Assembly (NCBI GenBank): GCA_038063535.1
Contig: JBBTUV010000004.1
Coordinates: 20,530 to 84,529 of the forward strand
Source: Patescibacteria group bacterium
GTDB taxonomy: Bacteria; Patescibacteriota; Minisyncoccia; Phycocordibacterales; UBA9973
Reading direction: 5' to 3'
DNA length: 64,000 bases
Shown: piece by piece, positions 3,942-17,544 of the stretch
Numbering within the stretch: position 1 is the first letter of the stretch
Layout: every line of letters starts with the position of its first letter
Made by a program: the position numbers and the translations under genes
Notes under the pieces: model-generated
Databases searched by the model: none
The model's input: only the letters and a program-made list of their open reading frames with translations
Told to the model about the DNA's origin: nothing

Positions 3942-3977
3942 GCTAGTAGTATAGCATATTCCACCTTAAAAGTCAAG

Positions 3978-4061
3978 TGCCGTGGGGGAGATTTGAACTC
4001 CCAAGAGATTACTCTCAATAGCTCCTGAAGCTATCGCGTATACCAATTCCGCCACCACGGC
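3978..4061 (-). tRNA. tRNA-Leu (anticodon CAG), long variable arm, no encoded CCA
   Basis: The cloverleaf was folded manually. The acceptor is GCCGTGG/CCACGGC, the anticodon loop is TTCAGGA and the T-loop is GGGAGTTCAAATCTCCC. Confidence 0.85.
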
Positions 4062-4065
4062 TCTG

Positions 4066-4147
4066 TGGGCGAGAGAGGACTCGAACCTCCAAGTCTTTCG
4101 ACACGTGCTCCTAAGGCACGCGCGTATACCAATTCCGCCACTCGCCC
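4066..4147 (-). tRNA. tRNA-Leu (anticodon TAG), long variable arm
   Basis: The acceptor is GGGCGAG/CTCGCCC, the anticodon stem-loop is CGTGC-CTTAGGA-GCACG and the T-arm is GGTTCGAGTCC. Confidence 0.85.
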
Positions 4148-4151
4148 TCTG

Positions 4152-4224
4152 TCCGCCCTGTAGGATTCGAACCTACGACCTTCTCCTTAAGAGGGAGCAG
4201 CTCTACCAGCTGAGCTAAGGGCGG
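4152..4224 (-). tRNA. tRNA-Lys (anticodon CTT)
   Basis: 73 nt. The acceptor is CCGCCCT/AGGGCGG, the D-arm is GCTCAGCTGGTAGAGC, the anticodon loop is CTCTTAA and the T-arm is GTAGGTTCGAATCCTAC. The anticodon stem carries one G-A mismatch. Confidence 0.75.
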
Positions 4225-4227
4225 ATG

Positions 4228-4309
4228 TGCCCGGGGTGGGCATCGAACCCACATCTCTTGCGAGACACGATCTTAAGTCGTGCGCGTATACCAATTCCGC
4301 CACCCGGGC
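4228..4309 (-). tRNA. tRNA-Leu (anticodon TAA), long variable arm
   Basis: The acceptor is GCCCGGG/CCCGGGC and the anticodon stem-loop is CACGA-CTTAAGA-TCGTG. Confidence 0.85.
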
Positions 4310-4341
4310 AATATTCTTTTTTCGATCTACATTCTTCTCCG

Positions 4342-4416
4342 TGGAGGCCTAGGTGGGAATCGCACCCACGTATAAGAGTTTTGCAGACTCTTGCCTTACT
4401 ACTTGGCGACTAGGCC
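4342..4416 (-). tRNA. tRNA-Cys (anticodon GCA), CCA encoded
   Basis: The acceptor is GGCCTAG/CTAGGCC, the anticodon stem-loop is AGAGT-CTGCAAA-ACTCT and the T-arm is GTGGGTGCGATTCCCAC. It is the only tRNA in the cluster with a genomically encoded CCA. Confidence 0.8.
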
Positions 4417-11943: not shown

Positions 11944-12011
11944 ATTTTTATCGACGTTTAACTACGACCTTTTTTATAGACTATTACAAACTGCCCAATA
12001 AGTCCAATTTG

Positions 12012-12094
12012 TGCGCCGGGAGGGATTCGAACCCCCGTAGCCCGAAGGCGATTGGTTTACAGCCAATTGCAATTGACCACTCTGCCACCGACGC
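12012..12094 (-). tRNA. tRNA-Tyr (anticodon GTA), long variable arm
   Basis: The acceptor is GCGTCGG/CCGGCGC, the anticodon stem-loop is ATTGG-CTGTAAA-CCAAT, the variable arm is CGCCTTCGGGCTAC and the T-arm is GGGGGTTCGAATCCCTC. Confidence 0.85.
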
Positions 12095-12194: not shown

Positions 12195-14006
12195 ATGGAA
12201 ATTAGAAATATAGCTATAATCGCCCATGTGGACCATGGCAAGACCACTCTAACCGATGCTCTAATGAAGCAAAATGGAATACTCTTGGATGAGGGAGTGT
12301 CTATGGACTCAAACGCTCTGGAAAAAGAGCGCGGTATTACTATATATTCCAAAAACACATCAATCTATTACAAGGGTACAAAGATAAACATCGTAGATAC
12401 TCCTGGCCACGCGGATTTCGGAAGCGAAGTGGAACGCGTTTTGCGAGCCATTGATTCGGTACTTCTTTTAGTGGACGCCGTTGAAGGTCCCATGCCTCAA
12501 ACCAGGTTCGTTCTGAAAAAATCTTTAGAGCTGGGACTCCAGCCGATTGTGGTTATAAATAAGATAGACAAGTCAGCTTCAGATCCGCACCGAGTGCACG
12601 ATGAAATTCTGGGATTGTTTTTTGAACTGGGTGCTTCTGAAGAGCAAGCAAATTTTGAGACGATTTATGCTATTGGGCGAGAGGGGAAAGCCTTTAAAAA
12701 TCTTGGTGATACGTCGGCAGACCTGTCTCCACTGCTAGACTTGATTCTAGAAAAAGTTCCACCAGCTTCAAAGAAAGAAAATGAAAAGATGTCGGCACAG
12801 GTTTTCAACTTAGCTTATGACAATTTCCTAGGCAGAATGGCAGTCGCGCGAATTTATTCGGGTCAAATGAAATCCCCCGCCGCTGTTTTTGTGAAGGGCG
12901 AGAAGGGAAGTCGTGCAGGTAAGATCACGAAACTTTTTACCTTCGAGGGAATAAGCAGGAAAGAAGTCGAGAAAGCTTTATCGGGCGACATAGTGCTCTT
13001 GGCTGGTATTCCAGACATATATATCGGTGAGACCATTTGTGAAGATGAAACGGTAGAGGAAATGCCACACATTGCTATCGACGAGCCGACGCTCTCACTC
13101 AATTTTTTGGTTAACGACTCTCCATTTGCTGGTCGGGAAGGAAAGTTTGTAACTTCAAGACAGCTTAAAGAAAGATTAGAAAAAGAACTTGAGATAAATG
13201 TCGGTCTTAGAATCAATTTTTCACCGGATCAGGGTGAAAAAATGGGGCCGAGCTTTTTTAAAGTTTACGGTCGCGGTGAATTACACATTGCTATCCTTCT
13301 CGAAAATATGCGACGCGAAGGATTTGAAATGCAGGTTTCGGAACCAGAAGTAATTATCAAAGAGAATGATGGCGAGCTTGTCGAACCATATGAAGAACTA
13401 GTTATTGACGTACCTGTAGAATCAAGCGGAAGCGTTATTGAAAAAATTGGCAAGCGTAGAGGCATCATGAAAGACATGGTAGAGAAAGAGGGCATAGCTC
13501 GAGTTATTTTTGATATCCCAACTCGCGGACTTCTGGGGTATCGTAGTGAGTTTATCATCGACACCAAAGGGGAAGGTATCATGTCTTCTCGTGTCACTGG
13601 CTTTCGAAAGTACGCAGGGGATATAAATAAGCGCGAATTCGGCTCGATGGTTTCGATGGTGTCCGGCAAGGCAGTCACCTTCTCCCTTGCAAATTTACAA
13701 GAACGTGGTATTATGTATATCGAGCACGGAGCCGAGGTATATGAGGGCATGGTCATAGGGAACGTGTTAAAAGGGGAGGATATGTCAGTAAACCCTACCA
13801 AAGGCAAGCAGCTTACCAACATGCGTGCTTCCGGTACCGATGAGGCTTTGTTTTTAAAGCCTGCTTTTACTTTAAACATAGAAAGGGGCCTAGAAGTTAT
13901 GAATAGAGAAGAATATCTCGAAATCACTCCCGAGTCCGTGAGACTTCGCAAAAAGTACCTCACCGAACTAGATCGGACAAGGCAGGGGAGGCAAAGCAAG
14001 AGATAG
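12195..14006 (+). CDS. typA: Translational GTPase TypA/BipA
   Basis: [11 protein letters not shown] and DTPGHADF are present and the architecture is EF-G-like. 603 aa. Confidence 0.95.
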
Positions 14007-14011
14007 TAGAT

Positions 14012-14039
14012 TTGACACTGGGCCGGCATTGTGTATAAT
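14012..14039 (+). promoter_or_regulatory. Consensus sigma-70-type promoter (TTGACA-16 nt-TATAAT)
   Basis: Both hexamers are perfect with a 16-nt spacer, 25 nt upstream of the ATG at 14064. Confidence 0.6.
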
Positions 14040-14063
14040 TAAGGGGTAGACTTTCTCAAATTT

Positions 14064-15095
14064 ATGGCAAAGGTATCCTTCAAACCCAAGCAAGTCACCA
14101 AAAGAATCACTTCCCATCTTCATGACCGAGCGAACGATGTTATCATGAGCCGCTTCGGTCTCACTCCGGACGCGGTCCGGAAGACTCTCGAGGAGATCGG
14201 CAAGCGTTACAACATTACCCGCGAGCGAGTCCGTCAGATCGAAGACGCGGCCATCGCGCTTATCAAAAAGTCCGAAGCCTACAAACGGGAACAGGTAGCC
14301 TTCGATGAACTCAAAGAGCTGATCGTCTCACTCGGTTCGATCGTCGCCGAGCACGAGTTGCTTTCGCACATAAGCGATGATAAAGCGACCCAGAACCATA
14401 TTCATTTTTATCTTGTCTTGGGCGATACTTTCAAAAAACATCGTGAGGACGAGCATTTTCATGCGCGTTGGAGCGTGAACGACGCGGTGGCGGAGAAAGT
14501 ACACGACGCACTGAAGCGTCTTTATGCCTCCCTCTCGGACGAAGATCTTGTCCCGGAGTCTGAGATGATTAAAAGATTCCTCGAGCATTTGAAGGACGCC
14601 TCGGATCATTATCGGGACGAGGAGATTGCCCGCAGATGGCTGCGTATCTCAAAGACCATCAAGAAGAATCCCTTGGGCGACTGGGGCAAGGCGAGCTCTC
14701 CGAACGTCCACACTCGTGGCGTGAAAGATTACGCGTTCCTGGTGATGCGCAAGCACGGCTCGCCGATGCATTTCCGGGAAGTTGCCGACGCGATCTCGAA
14801 AACTTTCGGGAAGAAGACTCACTACGCCACTTGCCACAACGAACTGATCAAAGACCCGCGCTTCGTCTTGGTGGGGCGGGGGATCTATGCGCTCGCCGAG
14901 TGGGGCTACAAGCCCGGCATCGCTCGCGAAGTCATCAGGGATATCCTCAAGCGCGAAGGTCCGATGAACAAGGACGACGTCATCGAGCGGGTGATGAAAG
15001 AGCGCTACTTCAAGAAAAATACTATTCTCGTCAACCTGGTGAACCCGAAGTATTTCAAGAAAAACAAGAACGGCCTCTATTCGCTCGCCGCATAG
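14064..15095 (+). CDS. DNA-binding protein with an N-terminal sigma-70 region 4 HTH and a C-terminal HARE-HTH-like winged helix
   Basis: The N-terminus has the sigma region 4.2 signature (LEEIGKRYNITRERVRQIEDAAIALIKK). The C-terminal ~90 aa resemble the RpoE-delta N-terminal HARE-HTH (FREVADAISKTF...GRGIYALAEWGY). There are no sigma regions 2 or 3. Confidence 0.65.
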   Translation: MAKVSFKPKQVTKRITSHLHDRANDVIMSRFGLTPDAVRKTLEEIGKRYNITRERVRQIEDAAIALIKKSEAYKREQVAFDELKELIVSLGSIVAEHELLSHISDDKATQNHIHFYLVLGDTFKKHREDEHFHARWSVNDAVAEKVHDALKRLYASLSDEDLVPESEMIKRFLEHLKDASDHYRDEEIARRWLRISKTIKKNPLGDWGKASSPNVHTRGVKDYAFLVMRKHGSPMHFREVADAISKTFGKKTHYATCHNELIKDPRFVLVGRGIYALAEWGYKPGIAREVIRDILKREGPMNKDDVIERVMKERYFKKNTILVNLVNPKYFKKNKNGLYSLAA

Positions 15096-15107: not shown

Positions 15108-15284
15108 ATGCCCATTTTCCCCATAGTTTTCATGCTCTTCGTCCTCCCGTTCCTGATCATCCAGGAGGGGTATAAGATGCTCAAGGGTGCTCTCTCCCGC
15201 CCGGGTTTCGCCAGGAATTTTCTCTATATTTTGGTGCTCTTGCTTGCGCTAGTCGGCATCTCTCTCTTTCTCGCCGGCTTCTAG
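15108..15284 (+). CDS. Possible small two-helix membrane protein (58 aa, below the ORF-track cutoff)
   Basis: This is an ATG-initiated ORF (MPIFPIVFMLFVLPFLIIQEGYKMLKGALSRPGFARNFLYILVLLLALVGISLFLAGF) in the gap between two plus-strand genes. Confidence 0.3.
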   Translation: MPIFPIVFMLFVLPFLIIQEGYKMLKGALSRPGFARNFLYILVLLLALVGISLFLAGF

Positions 15285-15313: not shown

Positions 15314-16666
15314 ATGGACGAGCTTTTTGATTTCCTCGAGCATCATCTCCCCAAGATCCTCCTGGTCGTTATCGTCGCATTCCTTGCCTGGGTGCTTTTC
15401 CGAGCCGAACTTCTTTTTCCGCTTCTGGGTACGATTATCCTCGGCTGGATCGGCTGGAAGGTATGGGTGCATTACGTCCAGCAAGACTTCATCTCCGGCA
15501 TCGAGTGGGTGCTCCTTGAGATAGTGCCACCGCGGGAGGTCATGCGCTCTCCGAAAGCGATGGAGCTTTTTATCACCAACGCTCTCTATCACCTTTCTTT
15601 CAAAGGGGGCAAAGAAGAGTTCTGGCAGGGCGCGGTCTGGTTCTGGCATTCGCTCGAGATCGCTTCGATCGAGGGGCAGGTGCATTTTTATGTCCGCAGT
15701 CCGTCGCGCCTCCGGGGCCTCATTGAAACACAGTTGTACGCGCAGTACCCCCAGGCGCAGGTGCGGGTGGCGGAAGATTACACGCTCGCCGTGCCGGAAA
15801 TTTCCCAAAATAGTGAATGGAACGGCTGGGGTTGTGAATTCAATCTTGTAAAAAGCGAGGCTTACCCGATCAAGACCTACACCGATTTCGGTTTGGACAA
15901 AGATCCCAAAGAAGAATACAAAGTGGACCCGATCTCTCCGGTGATCGAGTTCTTCGGCGCACTCGGCAAGAATGAGCAGGCGTGGCTCCAGTTTGTGATC
16001 AAGCCCGCGGGAGCCACCGGCGGCACGAAACATAAACGGGATTGGGTGAACCAGGCGAACGACACCATGAAAGATTTGCTCCGGCCCTACACTCGTACGC
16101 AAAGAGGCATAGAAGAGGGAGAAACTGCACTCGAGATCCGCGCGCCGAAATTCTACGACAACGTTATCACCGCTATGAACATGAAGACAGGCAAGCTCGG
16201 TTTCGAAACGGGCATCCGGCTCGTCTACGTGGCCAAGAAAGAACACTTCAGCATGAACAATCGCCGCGACATCCGTCTTATTTTCCGCCAATACGCCAAG
16301 CCCGATTGCAACGAGCTCCTGCGCATAAATTCCGCGCAGGCGGACCGCTACAGCGGCGTCTTTTCCGCCTCGCCGAAGACCGTCATGATGCTCGCAAACA
16401 GGATGGTGCATGAATTCCGCGACCGGGCATTCTTTCACCTCCCACTCCGGCACCACATTTTCTCCCAAAAGTATTGGAGCTGGCCCTTTCCGACGTTTAT
16501 CTCCATAGACGGCATCATCAAGGCTTACATTCATCACCATACCTTTATCCTGAACACCGAAGAGCTCGCGACCCTCTGGCATTTCCCGGGCCAGATCCTG
16601 AAAGTCCCGTCCCTCGAGCGCATCGAATCGAAAGAAGCTTCTCCGCCTCCAAACTTGCCGACATGA
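15314..16666 (+). CDS. Hypothetical membrane protein (two N-terminal TM helices plus a ~390-aa soluble domain), family not recognised
   Basis: 450 aa with credible TM helices and protein-like composition. The antisense 462-aa ORF has Arg/His-rich shadow composition. Its stop overlaps the mltG start (ATGA). Confidence 0.65.
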   Translation: MDELFDFLEHHLPKILLVVIVAFLAWVLFRAELLFPLLGTIILGWIGWKVWVHYVQQDFISGIEWVLLEIVPPREVMRSPKAMELFITNALYHLSFKGGKEEFWQGAVWFWHSLEIASIEGQVHFYVRSPSRLRGLIETQLYAQYPQAQVRVAEDYTLAVPEISQNSEWNGWGCEFNLVKSEAYPIKTYTDFGLDKDPKEEYKVDPISPVIEFFGALGKNEQAWLQFVIKPAGATGGTKHKRDWVNQANDTMKDLLRPYTRTQRGIEEGETALEIRAPKFYDNVITAMNMKTGKLGFETGIRLVYVAKKEHFSMNNRRDIRLIFRQYAKPDCNELLRINSAQADRYSGVFSASPKTVMMLANRMVHEFRDRAFFHLPLRHHIFSQKYWSWPFPTFISIDGIIKAYIHHHTFILNTEELATLWHFPGQILKVPSLERIESKEASPPPNLPT

Positions 16667-17544
16667 TTTTTTACCAGAAAGCATTTCCGCTTGCGCTCGG
16701 CGCTGTTTTACTCATCGCGGGCGTGAATTATTTTCTCATCTCTCCGCCCGGCGATTTTCCGGAGGGGCGCATTGTTTCTCTCGAGCAGGGGATGAGCCTG
16801 CGAGCCGTATCGGCCAAGCTCAAAGAGGAAAATTTTATCCGCTCGCGAGTGGCGTTCGAAGCGTTCGTCATCATCTACGCCGGTGAGCGGCATGCCGTCG
16901 CGGCCGATTACTATTTCGAAAAGAAACTGCCGGCTTTTGAAGTTGCGCGCCGGGTCGCATTCGGCAAAAGCGCTCTGGCGCCGATCCGCTTCACCATCCC
17001 CGAGGGCTTCACCAACCAAGAGATCGCCGCCTCCGCCGCGCGCCTGCTCCCGAACTTCGTTCCGGAAATATTTCTCAAGGACGCGAGCGACAAAGAGGGT
17101 TACCTTTTTCCCGACACTTATTTTTTTATTTTCCGCGCAAGTTCGGAGGACGTGCTCGGGGCTCTGGAGAAAAATTATGAGAAGAAAATAGTACCGCTCC
17201 GGCCGGAGATTGCTGAATCCGGGAAAAGTGAAGACTCGATAATCACCATGGCCTCGCTCATCGAGCGCGAGGCCAAAGGCCTCGAGCGCGCTGTAATCTC
17301 GGGAATTTTGTGGAAACGCCTTGCGCTCGGCCGAGCGCTCGAGGTTGATGCTGCGCCGGACACTTACCAAAAGCGGGGTTTGCCGGAAGCCCCCATAGCC
17401 AACCCCGGCCTAGCTTCGATCAAAGCGGCCATCCACCCCGAGAACTCGCCCTATCTTTACTACCTGCACGACTCGGAAGGCAATATTCATTACGCCCGCA
17501 CTTTCGAGGAGCACAAGAAGAATAAAGCGCTGTATTTAAAATAA
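16663..17544 (+). CDS. mltG: Endolytic murein transglycosylase MltG/YceG family
   Basis: There is an N-terminal TM helix and a YceG-like domain (DTYFF, LASIIEREA-like motif SLIEREAKG). The start is set at MIFYQKAF. Confidence 0.85.
   Translation: MIFYQKAFPLALGAVLLIAGVNYFLISPPGDFPEGRIVSLEQGMSLRAVSAKLKEENFIRSRVAFEAFVIIYAGERHAVAADYYFEKKLPAFEVARRVAFGKSALAPIRFTIPEGFTNQEIAASAARLLPNFVPEIFLKDASDKEGYLFPDTYFFIFRASSEDVLGALEKNYEKKIVPLRPEIAESGKSEDSIITMASLIEREAKGLERAVISGILWKRLALGRALEVDAAPDTYQKRGLPEAPIANPGLASIKAAIHPENSPYLYYLHDSEGNIHYARTFEEHKKNKALYLK

Follow-up and report, generated by a model that had tools for sequence, protein, structure and literature searches.

The DNA considered here, referred to as the window, is a stretch of 64,000 nucleotides from a Patescibacteria group bacterium (assembly GCA_038063535.1, contig JBBTUV010000004.1). 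Starting 57 nt downstream of the typA/bipA gene (12195..14006, with the GTP_EFTU and BipA_C domains), an open reading frame (ORF) on the forward strand (14064..15095) encodes a protein of 343 residues. This protein is named 'sigma factor-like helix-turn-helix DNA-binding protein' in NCBI and is 100% identical to a protein from a Patescibacteria metagenome-assembled genome (MAG; P0001). The gene occurs as a single copy in the window and can be regarded as real, because at least 8000 homologous clusters at 90% identity have been found for its product, with a length of about 342 residues. The protein combines a sigma-70 domain 4 with four winged helices, one of them a HARE-HTH domain, and will be called here the sigma-4/HARE protein. 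It is encoded next to a membrane protein of the DUF8128 family, and the function of this pair is the subject of the present analysis.

The sigma-70 domain 4 comprises regions 4.1 and 4.2 and lies at the N-terminus (residues 8-76; 14085..14291, forward strand), with four helices at residues 8-69 and a short helix at residues 71-75. The initial annotation had recognised a sigma region 4 signature in the motif NITRERVRQIEDAAIALIKK (residues 50-69), and a domain search has confirmed it, since Pfam Sigma70_r4 (PF04545) matches residues 18-68 above its curated threshold (E 3.9e-11; 42.7 bits vs a cutoff of 24.1). In NCBIfam and PDB sequence searches, residues 9-75 align with the C-terminus of primary sigma factors; domain 4 of S. 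aureus SigA (4g6d_A) is matched at E 2e-8. The PDB alignment to domain 4 of primary sigma factors spans residues 13-75 and takes in regions 4.1 and 4.2, with 33-42% identity for the SigA domain 4 chains of known structure. Sigma regions 2 and 3 had been described as absent, correctly so: in Pfam, Sigma70_r2 and Sigma70_r3 both stay without a match even when E values up to 10 are allowed, and the NCBIfam sigma models (RpoD, RpoS, RpoH, and SigK among them) match residues 5-85 only, with 21-52 bits vs cutoffs of 42.9-800. Contacts with the polymerase core and with the -10 element are the task of regions 2 and 3; because both regions are absent, the protein is not a sigma factor.

What has been preserved in this domain is the surface that reads the -35 element. 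Residue conservation was assessed in an alignment of 134 diverse representatives of 50%-identity clusters, whose columns were mapped to E. coli sigma-70; the numbering and the -35-contact roles are those of the published structures of sigma domain 4 on -35 DNA. The recognition helix TRERVRQIE (residues 52-60; 14217..14243, forward strand) is equivalent to T583-E591 of sigma-70. Within it, R53 (R584 in sigma-70) is kept in 134/134 representatives, E54 (E585), R55 (R586), R57 (R588), and Q58 (Q589) in 133/134 each, and T52 (T583) in 129/134. Outside this helix, R30 (R562) as well as T41 and L42 (T572 and L573) are present in 133/134, and R22 (R554) is an arginine in 121 and a lysine in 13 of the 134. 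These ten equivalents of -35-contacting residues are conserved at 90-100%, and the equivalents of the activator-contacting positions 593, 596, 597, and 599 are variable, so that the strongest constraint within the sigma-4 part falls on the residues that contact DNA. It is thus well supported that the 343-residue protein retains the -35-reading surface of a primary sigma factor.

The rest of the protein is made of winged helices. A model was obtained with AlphaFold2 (AF2) from an alignment of 144 sequences, and reached a predicted local distance difference test score (pLDDT) of 92.9 and a predicted template modelling score (pTM) of 0.79, as compared with a pLDDT of 38 for single-sequence AF2. 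In it, sigma domain 4 is complete and four winged helices come after it, each being a helix-helix-helix-hairpin unit (all coordinates on the forward strand). The third of the four is the HARE-HTH domain (residues 220-282; 14721..14909), which is matched by Pfam HARE-HTH (PF05066) at residues 220-280 (E 1.7e-9; 38.4 bits vs a cutoff of 25.9) and modelled as three helices plus a beta-hairpin at residues 220-277; no other part of the protein is as well conserved (2.88 bits), and its median net charge is +4. The AF2-defined winged helix 4 (residues 287-343; 14922..15092) is basic as well (2.31 bits, median net charge +5) and gives weak Pfam matches to Penicillinase_R and DUF3320. Those AF2 units lying between the sigma-4 and the HARE domains are weakly conserved: winged helix 1 (residues 77-137; 14292..14474) is acidic (1.42 bits, median net charge -3), and winged helix 2 (residues 140-209; 14481..14690) is neutral (1.37 bits, median net charge 0). 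With a mean conservation of 2.31 bits and a family median net charge of +5 for the sigma-4 domain, the layout is one of basic, conserved modules of DNA-binding type at both ends, one N-terminal and two C-terminal, joined by a variable pair of acidic-to-neutral winged helices. The initial annotation had assigned a HARE-HTH-like domain to the last ~90 residues; the domain itself stands (38.4 bits), but its placement does not, as it occupies residues 220-280 and another winged helix follows at 287-341. Likewise, the predicted structure contains the expected sigma-4 and HARE domains together with winged helices 1, 2, and 4, which had been missed. Fold searches of PDB and of viral models (BFVD) have found no full-length analogue, only single-domain matches.

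A likeness to the delta subunit of RNA polymerase had also been proposed. The delta-subunit model TIGR04567 scores 27.6 bits vs a cutoff of 42, at residues 222-281 of 343. RNA polymerase delta is strongly acidic. No acidic C-terminal tail exists in the window protein, in which the C-terminal 61 residues form a winged helix with an isoelectric point (pI) of 10.1, and the pI of the HARE domain is 9.7. Because it falls below the TIGR04567 cutoff and carries a basic C-terminus in place of an acidic tail, the protein is not delta. It is therefore well supported that this is a free-standing protein of DNA-binding type with several winged helices, distinct from sigma factors as well as from delta.

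The initial annotation had considered an anti-sigma-like competitor or a factor associated with RNA polymerase, and the protein might still meet the polymerase in some such manner. At L76, I79, and F80, it keeps hydrophobic counterparts of L607, F610, and L611 of sigma-70, and the beta-flap-binding groove may be intact, because the C-terminal helix to which they belong is present. The domain is complete in this respect, its best sequence and fold matches are region 4 of primary sigma factors, its slow, housekeeping-like evolutionary rate (see below) would fit a core transcription component, and some family members carry the name 'delta subunit' in JGI annotation. All this would suit an RNA polymerase-associated factor that sits with sigma-4 on the beta-flap tip and with HARE-HTH on beta-prime, like the N-terminal domain of delta, and that competes with or replaces region 4 of sigma-A. 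Nevertheless, the sub-threshold TIGR04567 score, the basic HARE domain, and the missing acidic tail speak against such a factor; no gene for sigma region 2 alone is adjacent in any locus, and it is a membrane protein gene, rather than one for transcription, that is kept beside it. A polymerase-associated role is on these grounds regarded as possible but rather doubtful. A variant of it, the recognition of the -35 element in trans for a sigma without region 4, as in the two-subunit SigO-RsoA, was rejected because sigma-A in the Niyogibacteria genome (locus L084) has its own canonical region 4 (TRERIRQIE), so that no trans-complementation is needed. Long Foldseek alignments to sigma-4/flap chimeras had raised another candidate, an intramolecular helix that mimics the beta-flap tip; it is unsupported, as L76, I79, and F80 are simply the counterparts of L607, F610, and L611.

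The family is widespread in Patescibacteria. Among the matches listed for the search at 90% identity, all those with an organism name belong to this phylum, the groups named being Nomurabacteria, Paceibacterota, and Minisyncoccia, followed by Niyogibacteria, Lloydbacteria, and Pacebacteria. An exhaustive search of 50%-identity representatives has yielded 570 clusters at E<=1e-30, which are full length down to 33% identity. In addition, a scan of GTDB genomes, which is not a census of the family, gave among the matches listed full-length members in Paceibacterota, Kaiserbacteria, Doudnabacteria, Peregrinibacteria, Parcubacteria, generic Patescibacteria, and some unclassified 'bacterium' MAGs, the remaining matches being ordinary sigma factors. 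Some MAGs labelled 'uncultured Candidatus Saccharibacteria' (L004, L006, L008, and L014) have proteins 51-68% identical to the Paceibacteria-type protein of the window; this label looks generic, because two long assemblies under the Saccharibacteria name (L042 and L050; 1.0-1.26 Mb) gave sigma-factor matches only. With respect to evolutionary rate, identities to the window proteins in the same loci are 64-79% for sigma-4/HARE, 68-84% for TypA, 34-66% for DUF8128, and 35-49% for YceG. The rate at which sigma-4/HARE evolves is that of a core housekeeping component and about as low as that of TypA. Both of its domains, and a database name for the family, were already known; a literature search has found no description of the sigma-4 plus four winged-helix architecture in Patescibacteria, and nothing on the invariance of the -35 contacts or on a link to DUF8128 and an orphan coupling protein.

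The gene is preceded by a promoter of consensus type. In the gap after typA, a -35 hexamer TTGACA (14012..14017) and a -10 hexamer TATAAT (14034..14039; both on the forward strand) are separated by 16 nt, and 24 nt lie between the end of the -10 hexamer and the ATG. The initial annotation had pointed to this TTGACA-16-TATAAT promoter, and rightly, as our own scan has found the 12/12 match to be unique on both strands of the window, with one 11/12 match besides; by our arithmetic, a perfect match would be expected by chance about 0.02 times per window. The sequence predicts that the gene is likely to be highly expressed. Promoters with 12/12 matches precede the gene also in L012, L014, and L015, and a TTGAC[A/T] hexamer is found upstream of it in most diverse loci. 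In L015, the -35 region in front of the Peregrinibacteria gene (at about 400-420) is an inverted repeat, TTGACACAATAAGTGTCAA, with two TTGACAC half-sites. As for the hexamer in the window at large, TTGACA is depleted about 2-fold, with 11 sites (8 on the forward and 3 on the reverse strand) vs 22.1 +/- 4.9 expected, and 100/100 shuffles had at least 11. A KOPS-like polar motif that guides a translocase was considered for TTGACA and discarded in view of this depletion.

Autoregulation is allowed by these data, because the gene's own -35 hexamer is the predicted target sequence; the upstream TTGAC[A/T] fits it, yet does not discriminate, because any sigma-A promoter would be expected to have such a hexamer. 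The same holds for a broader proposal, that of a stand-alone repressor which would block -35 elements throughout the genome or in front of its own gene, and whose linkage to DUF8128 would reflect no more than co-transcription or the local regulation of the operon. The invariant -35-contact residues, the three basic modules of helix-turn-helix type, the palindrome of L015 along with the TTGAC[A/T] hexamers of the other loci, and the depletion of TTGACA are all compatible with a repressor. On the other hand, L001 lacks such a promoter, and local regulators are rarely as slow-evolving as TypA. Repression also leaves unexplained why one membrane protein is kept adjacent phylum-wide while the other neighbours change. 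We therefore look on the repressor as a possible but rather doubtful explanation.

That membrane protein is encoded by the DUF8128 (PF26449) gene, which in the window (15314..16666, forward strand) specifies 450 residues with an N-terminal hydrophobic anchor and a C-terminal PPxNLP tail. DUF8128 lies directly downstream in 17 of the 19 loci sampled from the sigma-4/HARE side, down to 31% identity, and one further locus has an unannotated ORF of 435 residues at its position, which leaves L015 as the single locus where other genes follow. From the opposite side, starting from three divergent DUF8128 proteins, the sigma-4/HARE gene was found upstream in 3/3 loci. Two NCBI records, in which the locus tags of the two proteins are adjacent, are in line with this pairing, and no intrinsic terminator is predicted between the two genes in the window. 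That sigma-4/HARE is encoded as a unit with DUF8128 is thus well supported. The upstream side is a different matter. A conserved place beside typA, which the initial annotation had put forward for examination in related genomes, does not extend beyond the immediate clade: typA is upstream only in L001, L004, L005, and L088-L090, the loci whose protein has an identity of 64% or more to the query, and elsewhere its place is taken by leuS (L085, L087, and the P0338 locus), secD-secF (L009-L013 and L086), topA (L014), or a biopterin hydroxylase on the opposite strand (L084). As a side observation, one ORF of 659 residues (P0176) fuses SecF (SecD_SecF_C and Sec_GG) to a full sigma-4/HARE protein, mirroring the secD-secF-sigma-4/HARE gene order of L009-L013 and L086. 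Rosetta-stone support from this fusion and from an AAA_14-HARE chimera (P0129) was not accepted, since they are single cases that may be artefacts of gene calling or assembly.

DUF8128 proteins have 400-530 residues across loci, and in 13 of 15 sequences one or two hydrophobic helices lie at the N-terminus. Their alignment shows the conserved motifs LLEIxxPRE, SLEIVSIxGxVHF, YAQYP, PIKTY, and TEELATxxHFP. The extreme C-terminus, ...ESKxxxPPxNLP (16640-16663 in the window), is invariant in 15/15 divergent proteins whose bodies are about 30% identical, and this PPxNLP tail looks like a docking peptide. The DUF8128 protein of the window gives no match in the Pfam set searched, which did not include PF26449, and has no sequence relative in PDB. 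Among the 120 DUF8128 relatives listed, all that have an organism name are from Patescibacteria and are annotated as hypothetical; no fusion of DUF8128 to an ATPase occurs among these top 120 homologues.

In six loci (L009, L010, L011, L013, L084, and L086), the gene next after DUF8128 encodes an ATPase of 484-662 residues, which matches TrwB_AAD_bind, TraG-D_C, T4SS-DNA_transf, and DUF87, and usually ends in a treble-clef zinc finger (PF23477); L086 has two tandem paralogues, of 484 and 662 residues. This VirD4/TrwB-like ATPase is an orphan, being the only gene related to type IV secretion nearby in the six loci, and no VirB4 ATPase, relaxase, or mating-pore gene has been found among the annotated neighbours in the window, L001-L016, and L084-L090. 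The ATPase of L009 and its counterparts lack a transmembrane domain, because the P-loop begins near residue 37. An N-terminal transmembrane domain is attributed to most type IV coupling proteins (T4CPs; PMC7431656). We infer that DUF8128 supplies the membrane anchor for the VirD4/TrwB-like ATPase. In a 2025 survey, 5,713 VirD4-like T4CPs were reported in 2,918 Patescibacteria genomes, only 148 of them near virB4, and its authors left open that these T4CPs had been 'exapted for other functions' (PMC12102498). The anchor-less ATPases that follow DUF8128 may be these orphan T4CPs of Patescibacteria (PMC12102498).

The gene order, conserved across the phylum, in which a gene for a membrane protein comes after a sigma-like one, together with the N-terminal anchor of DUF8128, brings to mind the pairs of extracytoplasmic function (ECF) sigma factors and their anti-sigma factors. 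By this analogy, DUF8128 would act like a membrane anti-sigma factor and keep the sigma-4 protein at the membrane until its release by a signal. Such sequestration is considered highly improbable: searches of Pfam, PADLOC, and PDB sequences with the DUF8128 protein of the window turned up no anti-sigma family model and nothing else of relevance, its presumed partner lacks the sigma-2 domain, on which most anti-sigma factors also have a grip, and the T4CP-like ATPase found after DUF8128 in deep lineages points to an ATPase machine rather than to a signalling pair.

The explanation that we favour, with a confidence that stays somewhat short of even, is that the sigma-4/HARE protein binds TTGACA-like hexamers at many genomic sites and is the DNA-recognition part of a membrane module formed by DUF8128 and the T4CP-like ATPase. 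The sigma-4 module, having kept all the residues that contact the -35 element, would read these hexamers in just the way of a primary sigma, and the basic HARE domain and winged helix 4 would hold the neighbouring DNA. Many targets, rather than one operator, would be expected because the contacting residues are fixed phylum-wide, whereas a single operator could co-evolve with its regulator. The sigma-4/HARE gene would stand first in a conserved unit that it forms with the gene for DUF8128, the membrane protein, joined in deeper lineages by a VirD4/TrwB-type ATPase that has no membrane anchor of its own. The protein would then bring or tether DNA to the membrane module, probably via the variable middle winged helices, and would not act as a polymerase subunit. 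Going one step further, and with clearly more doubt, sigma-4/HARE may be the sequence-reading subunit of an unrecognised, Patescibacteria-wide membrane machine for DNA handling, with DUF8128 as its anchor and the orphan VirD4/TrwB-like ATPase as its motor. If this were true, a sigma-derived domain would recognise promoter-type hexamers, the HARE domain might sense DNA modification, and importing, segregating, or anchoring DNA could be the task of the machine in these tiny, host-dependent cells.

Several observations weigh against this favoured explanation. An isolated sigma-4 domain binds DNA weakly, and the proposed reading of TTGACA is derived from residue identity. The beta-flap groove of the domain may be intact, which leaves room for polymerase binding. 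The perfect promoter is not kept in L001, a relative with 79% identity. Regarding the partners, DUF8128 evolves much faster than the sigma-4/HARE protein, and in L015 (Peregrinibacteria) the genes after sigma-4/HARE are HIT and dnaE, not DUF8128. The T4CP-like ATPase is not adjacent in the clade of the window, where YceG/MltG follows DUF8128 instead, and no T4CP homologue exists anywhere in the window. Finally, adjacency is no proof of physical interaction, as a regulator placed before its target genes gives the same synteny.

Two other proposals for the pair, a phage origin and a defence system, have been rejected. A phage origin finds no backing: tblastn against 50,697 phage records gave pieces of sigma region 4 only and nothing for DUF8128, PHROGs matches cover sigma region 4 alone (with one weak match of unknown function for DUF8128), and BFVD has no full-length analogue. 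Similarly, the only PADLOC match that might indicate a defence system is MzaA, confined to the sigma region 4 part (28.8 bits, residues 16-70), and DUF8128 has none.

Some further features of the window surround the pair. The gap between the sigma-4/HARE and DUF8128 genes is 218 nt and contains a small ORF (15108..15284, forward strand), a putative gene for 58 residues with two hydrophobic segments and no family match in profile searches; in L001 (79% identical), the gap is 56 nt and the small ORF is missing. In the clade of the window, DUF8128 is followed by YceG/MltG, for which the longest ORF (16474-17544, forward strand) has a TTG start and shares about 190 nt with the final part of the DUF8128 gene. 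Judging from the sequence, its true start is probably the ATG of 'MIFYQKAF...' near 16663, which abuts the DUF8128 stop and suggests a tight operon of sigma-4/HARE, DUF8128, YceG, and an RNase T-like exonuclease. Farther upstream, on the reverse strand, there are a cluster of five tRNA genes (3977-4416; Leu-CAG, Leu-TAG, Lys-CTT, Leu-TAA, and Cys-GCA) and a lone tRNA-Tyr gene (12011-12094), located just upstream of typA and on the opposite strand.

The interest of the family goes beyond this locus. A large part of bacterial diversity falls within Patescibacteria, a phylum in which the majority of conserved genes are still without a known function. Here, a single-copy gene is kept almost as strongly as that of TypA, and it reuses the promoter-reading surface of the main sigma outside any sigma factor. 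Should the protein be a second reader of the -35 hexamer, whether as competitor, tether, or adaptor, the view of promoter occupancy in these bacteria would change. The conserved gene pair is also a first handle on the function of DUF8128, and on the thousands of Patescibacteria VirD4-like proteins encoded outside type IV secretion loci (PMC12102498). These proposals are testable with the purified protein and with the few cultivable members of the group.

Known systems resemble the sigma-4/HARE protein only in part. With domain 4 of the primary sigma factors (RpoD/SigA) it shares the four-helix fold, the C-terminal helix, and all of the -35-contact residues. Unlike them, it has no region 1.1, 2, or 3, and hence nothing for core binding or -10 reading; its equivalent of the basic activator-contact patch (593-599) is not conserved; and its domain 4 is N-terminal and followed by four winged helices. 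The RpoE delta subunit of Bacillota differs in that the HARE domain of our protein is basic, internal, and flanked by winged helices, with no acidic tail. Another comparison involves the HARE-HTH proteins related to DNA modification, that is, ASXL1 and the fusions to restriction enzymes, which contain the same domain. The HARE-HTH of ASXL1 has been shown to bind duplex DNA, with a preference for N6-methyladenine (6mA), in pull-down assays (PMC6591016), and a role of the domain in discriminating DNA modifications has been proposed from comparative genomics (PMC10853773). The sigma-4/HARE gene differs in that it is neither fused to nor flanked by any gene for a nuclease, a methylase, or defence. 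In Gram-positive housekeeping operons, WhiA and YlxM/p13 are slow-evolving proteins with fixed neighbours that carry a helix-turn-helix like that of sigma region 4 outside sigma factors. Their partner domains are others (LAGLIDADG in WhiA, none in YlxM), and the 343-residue protein matches neither family in Pfam or NCBIfam. Finally, in TraM-TraD, TrwA-TrwB, PcfF-PcfC, and FtsK gamma acting on the FtsK-orienting polar sequences (KOPS), a small DNA-recognition module of helix-turn-helix or winged-helix type is encoded together with a membrane-anchored ATPase of FtsK/VirD4 type and passes DNA on to it. The sigma-4/HARE protein has no sequence relationship with these modules, neither a relaxase nor an origin of transfer (oriT) is present, and KOPS are enriched, whereas TTGACA is depleted in the window. 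Moreover, the T4CP of Patescibacteria is an orphan, encoded away from virB4 (PMC12102498). With these differences in mind, the accessory proteins of relaxosomes and FtsK gamma provide the working analogy for a protein that might recognise DNA on behalf of a membrane ATPase.

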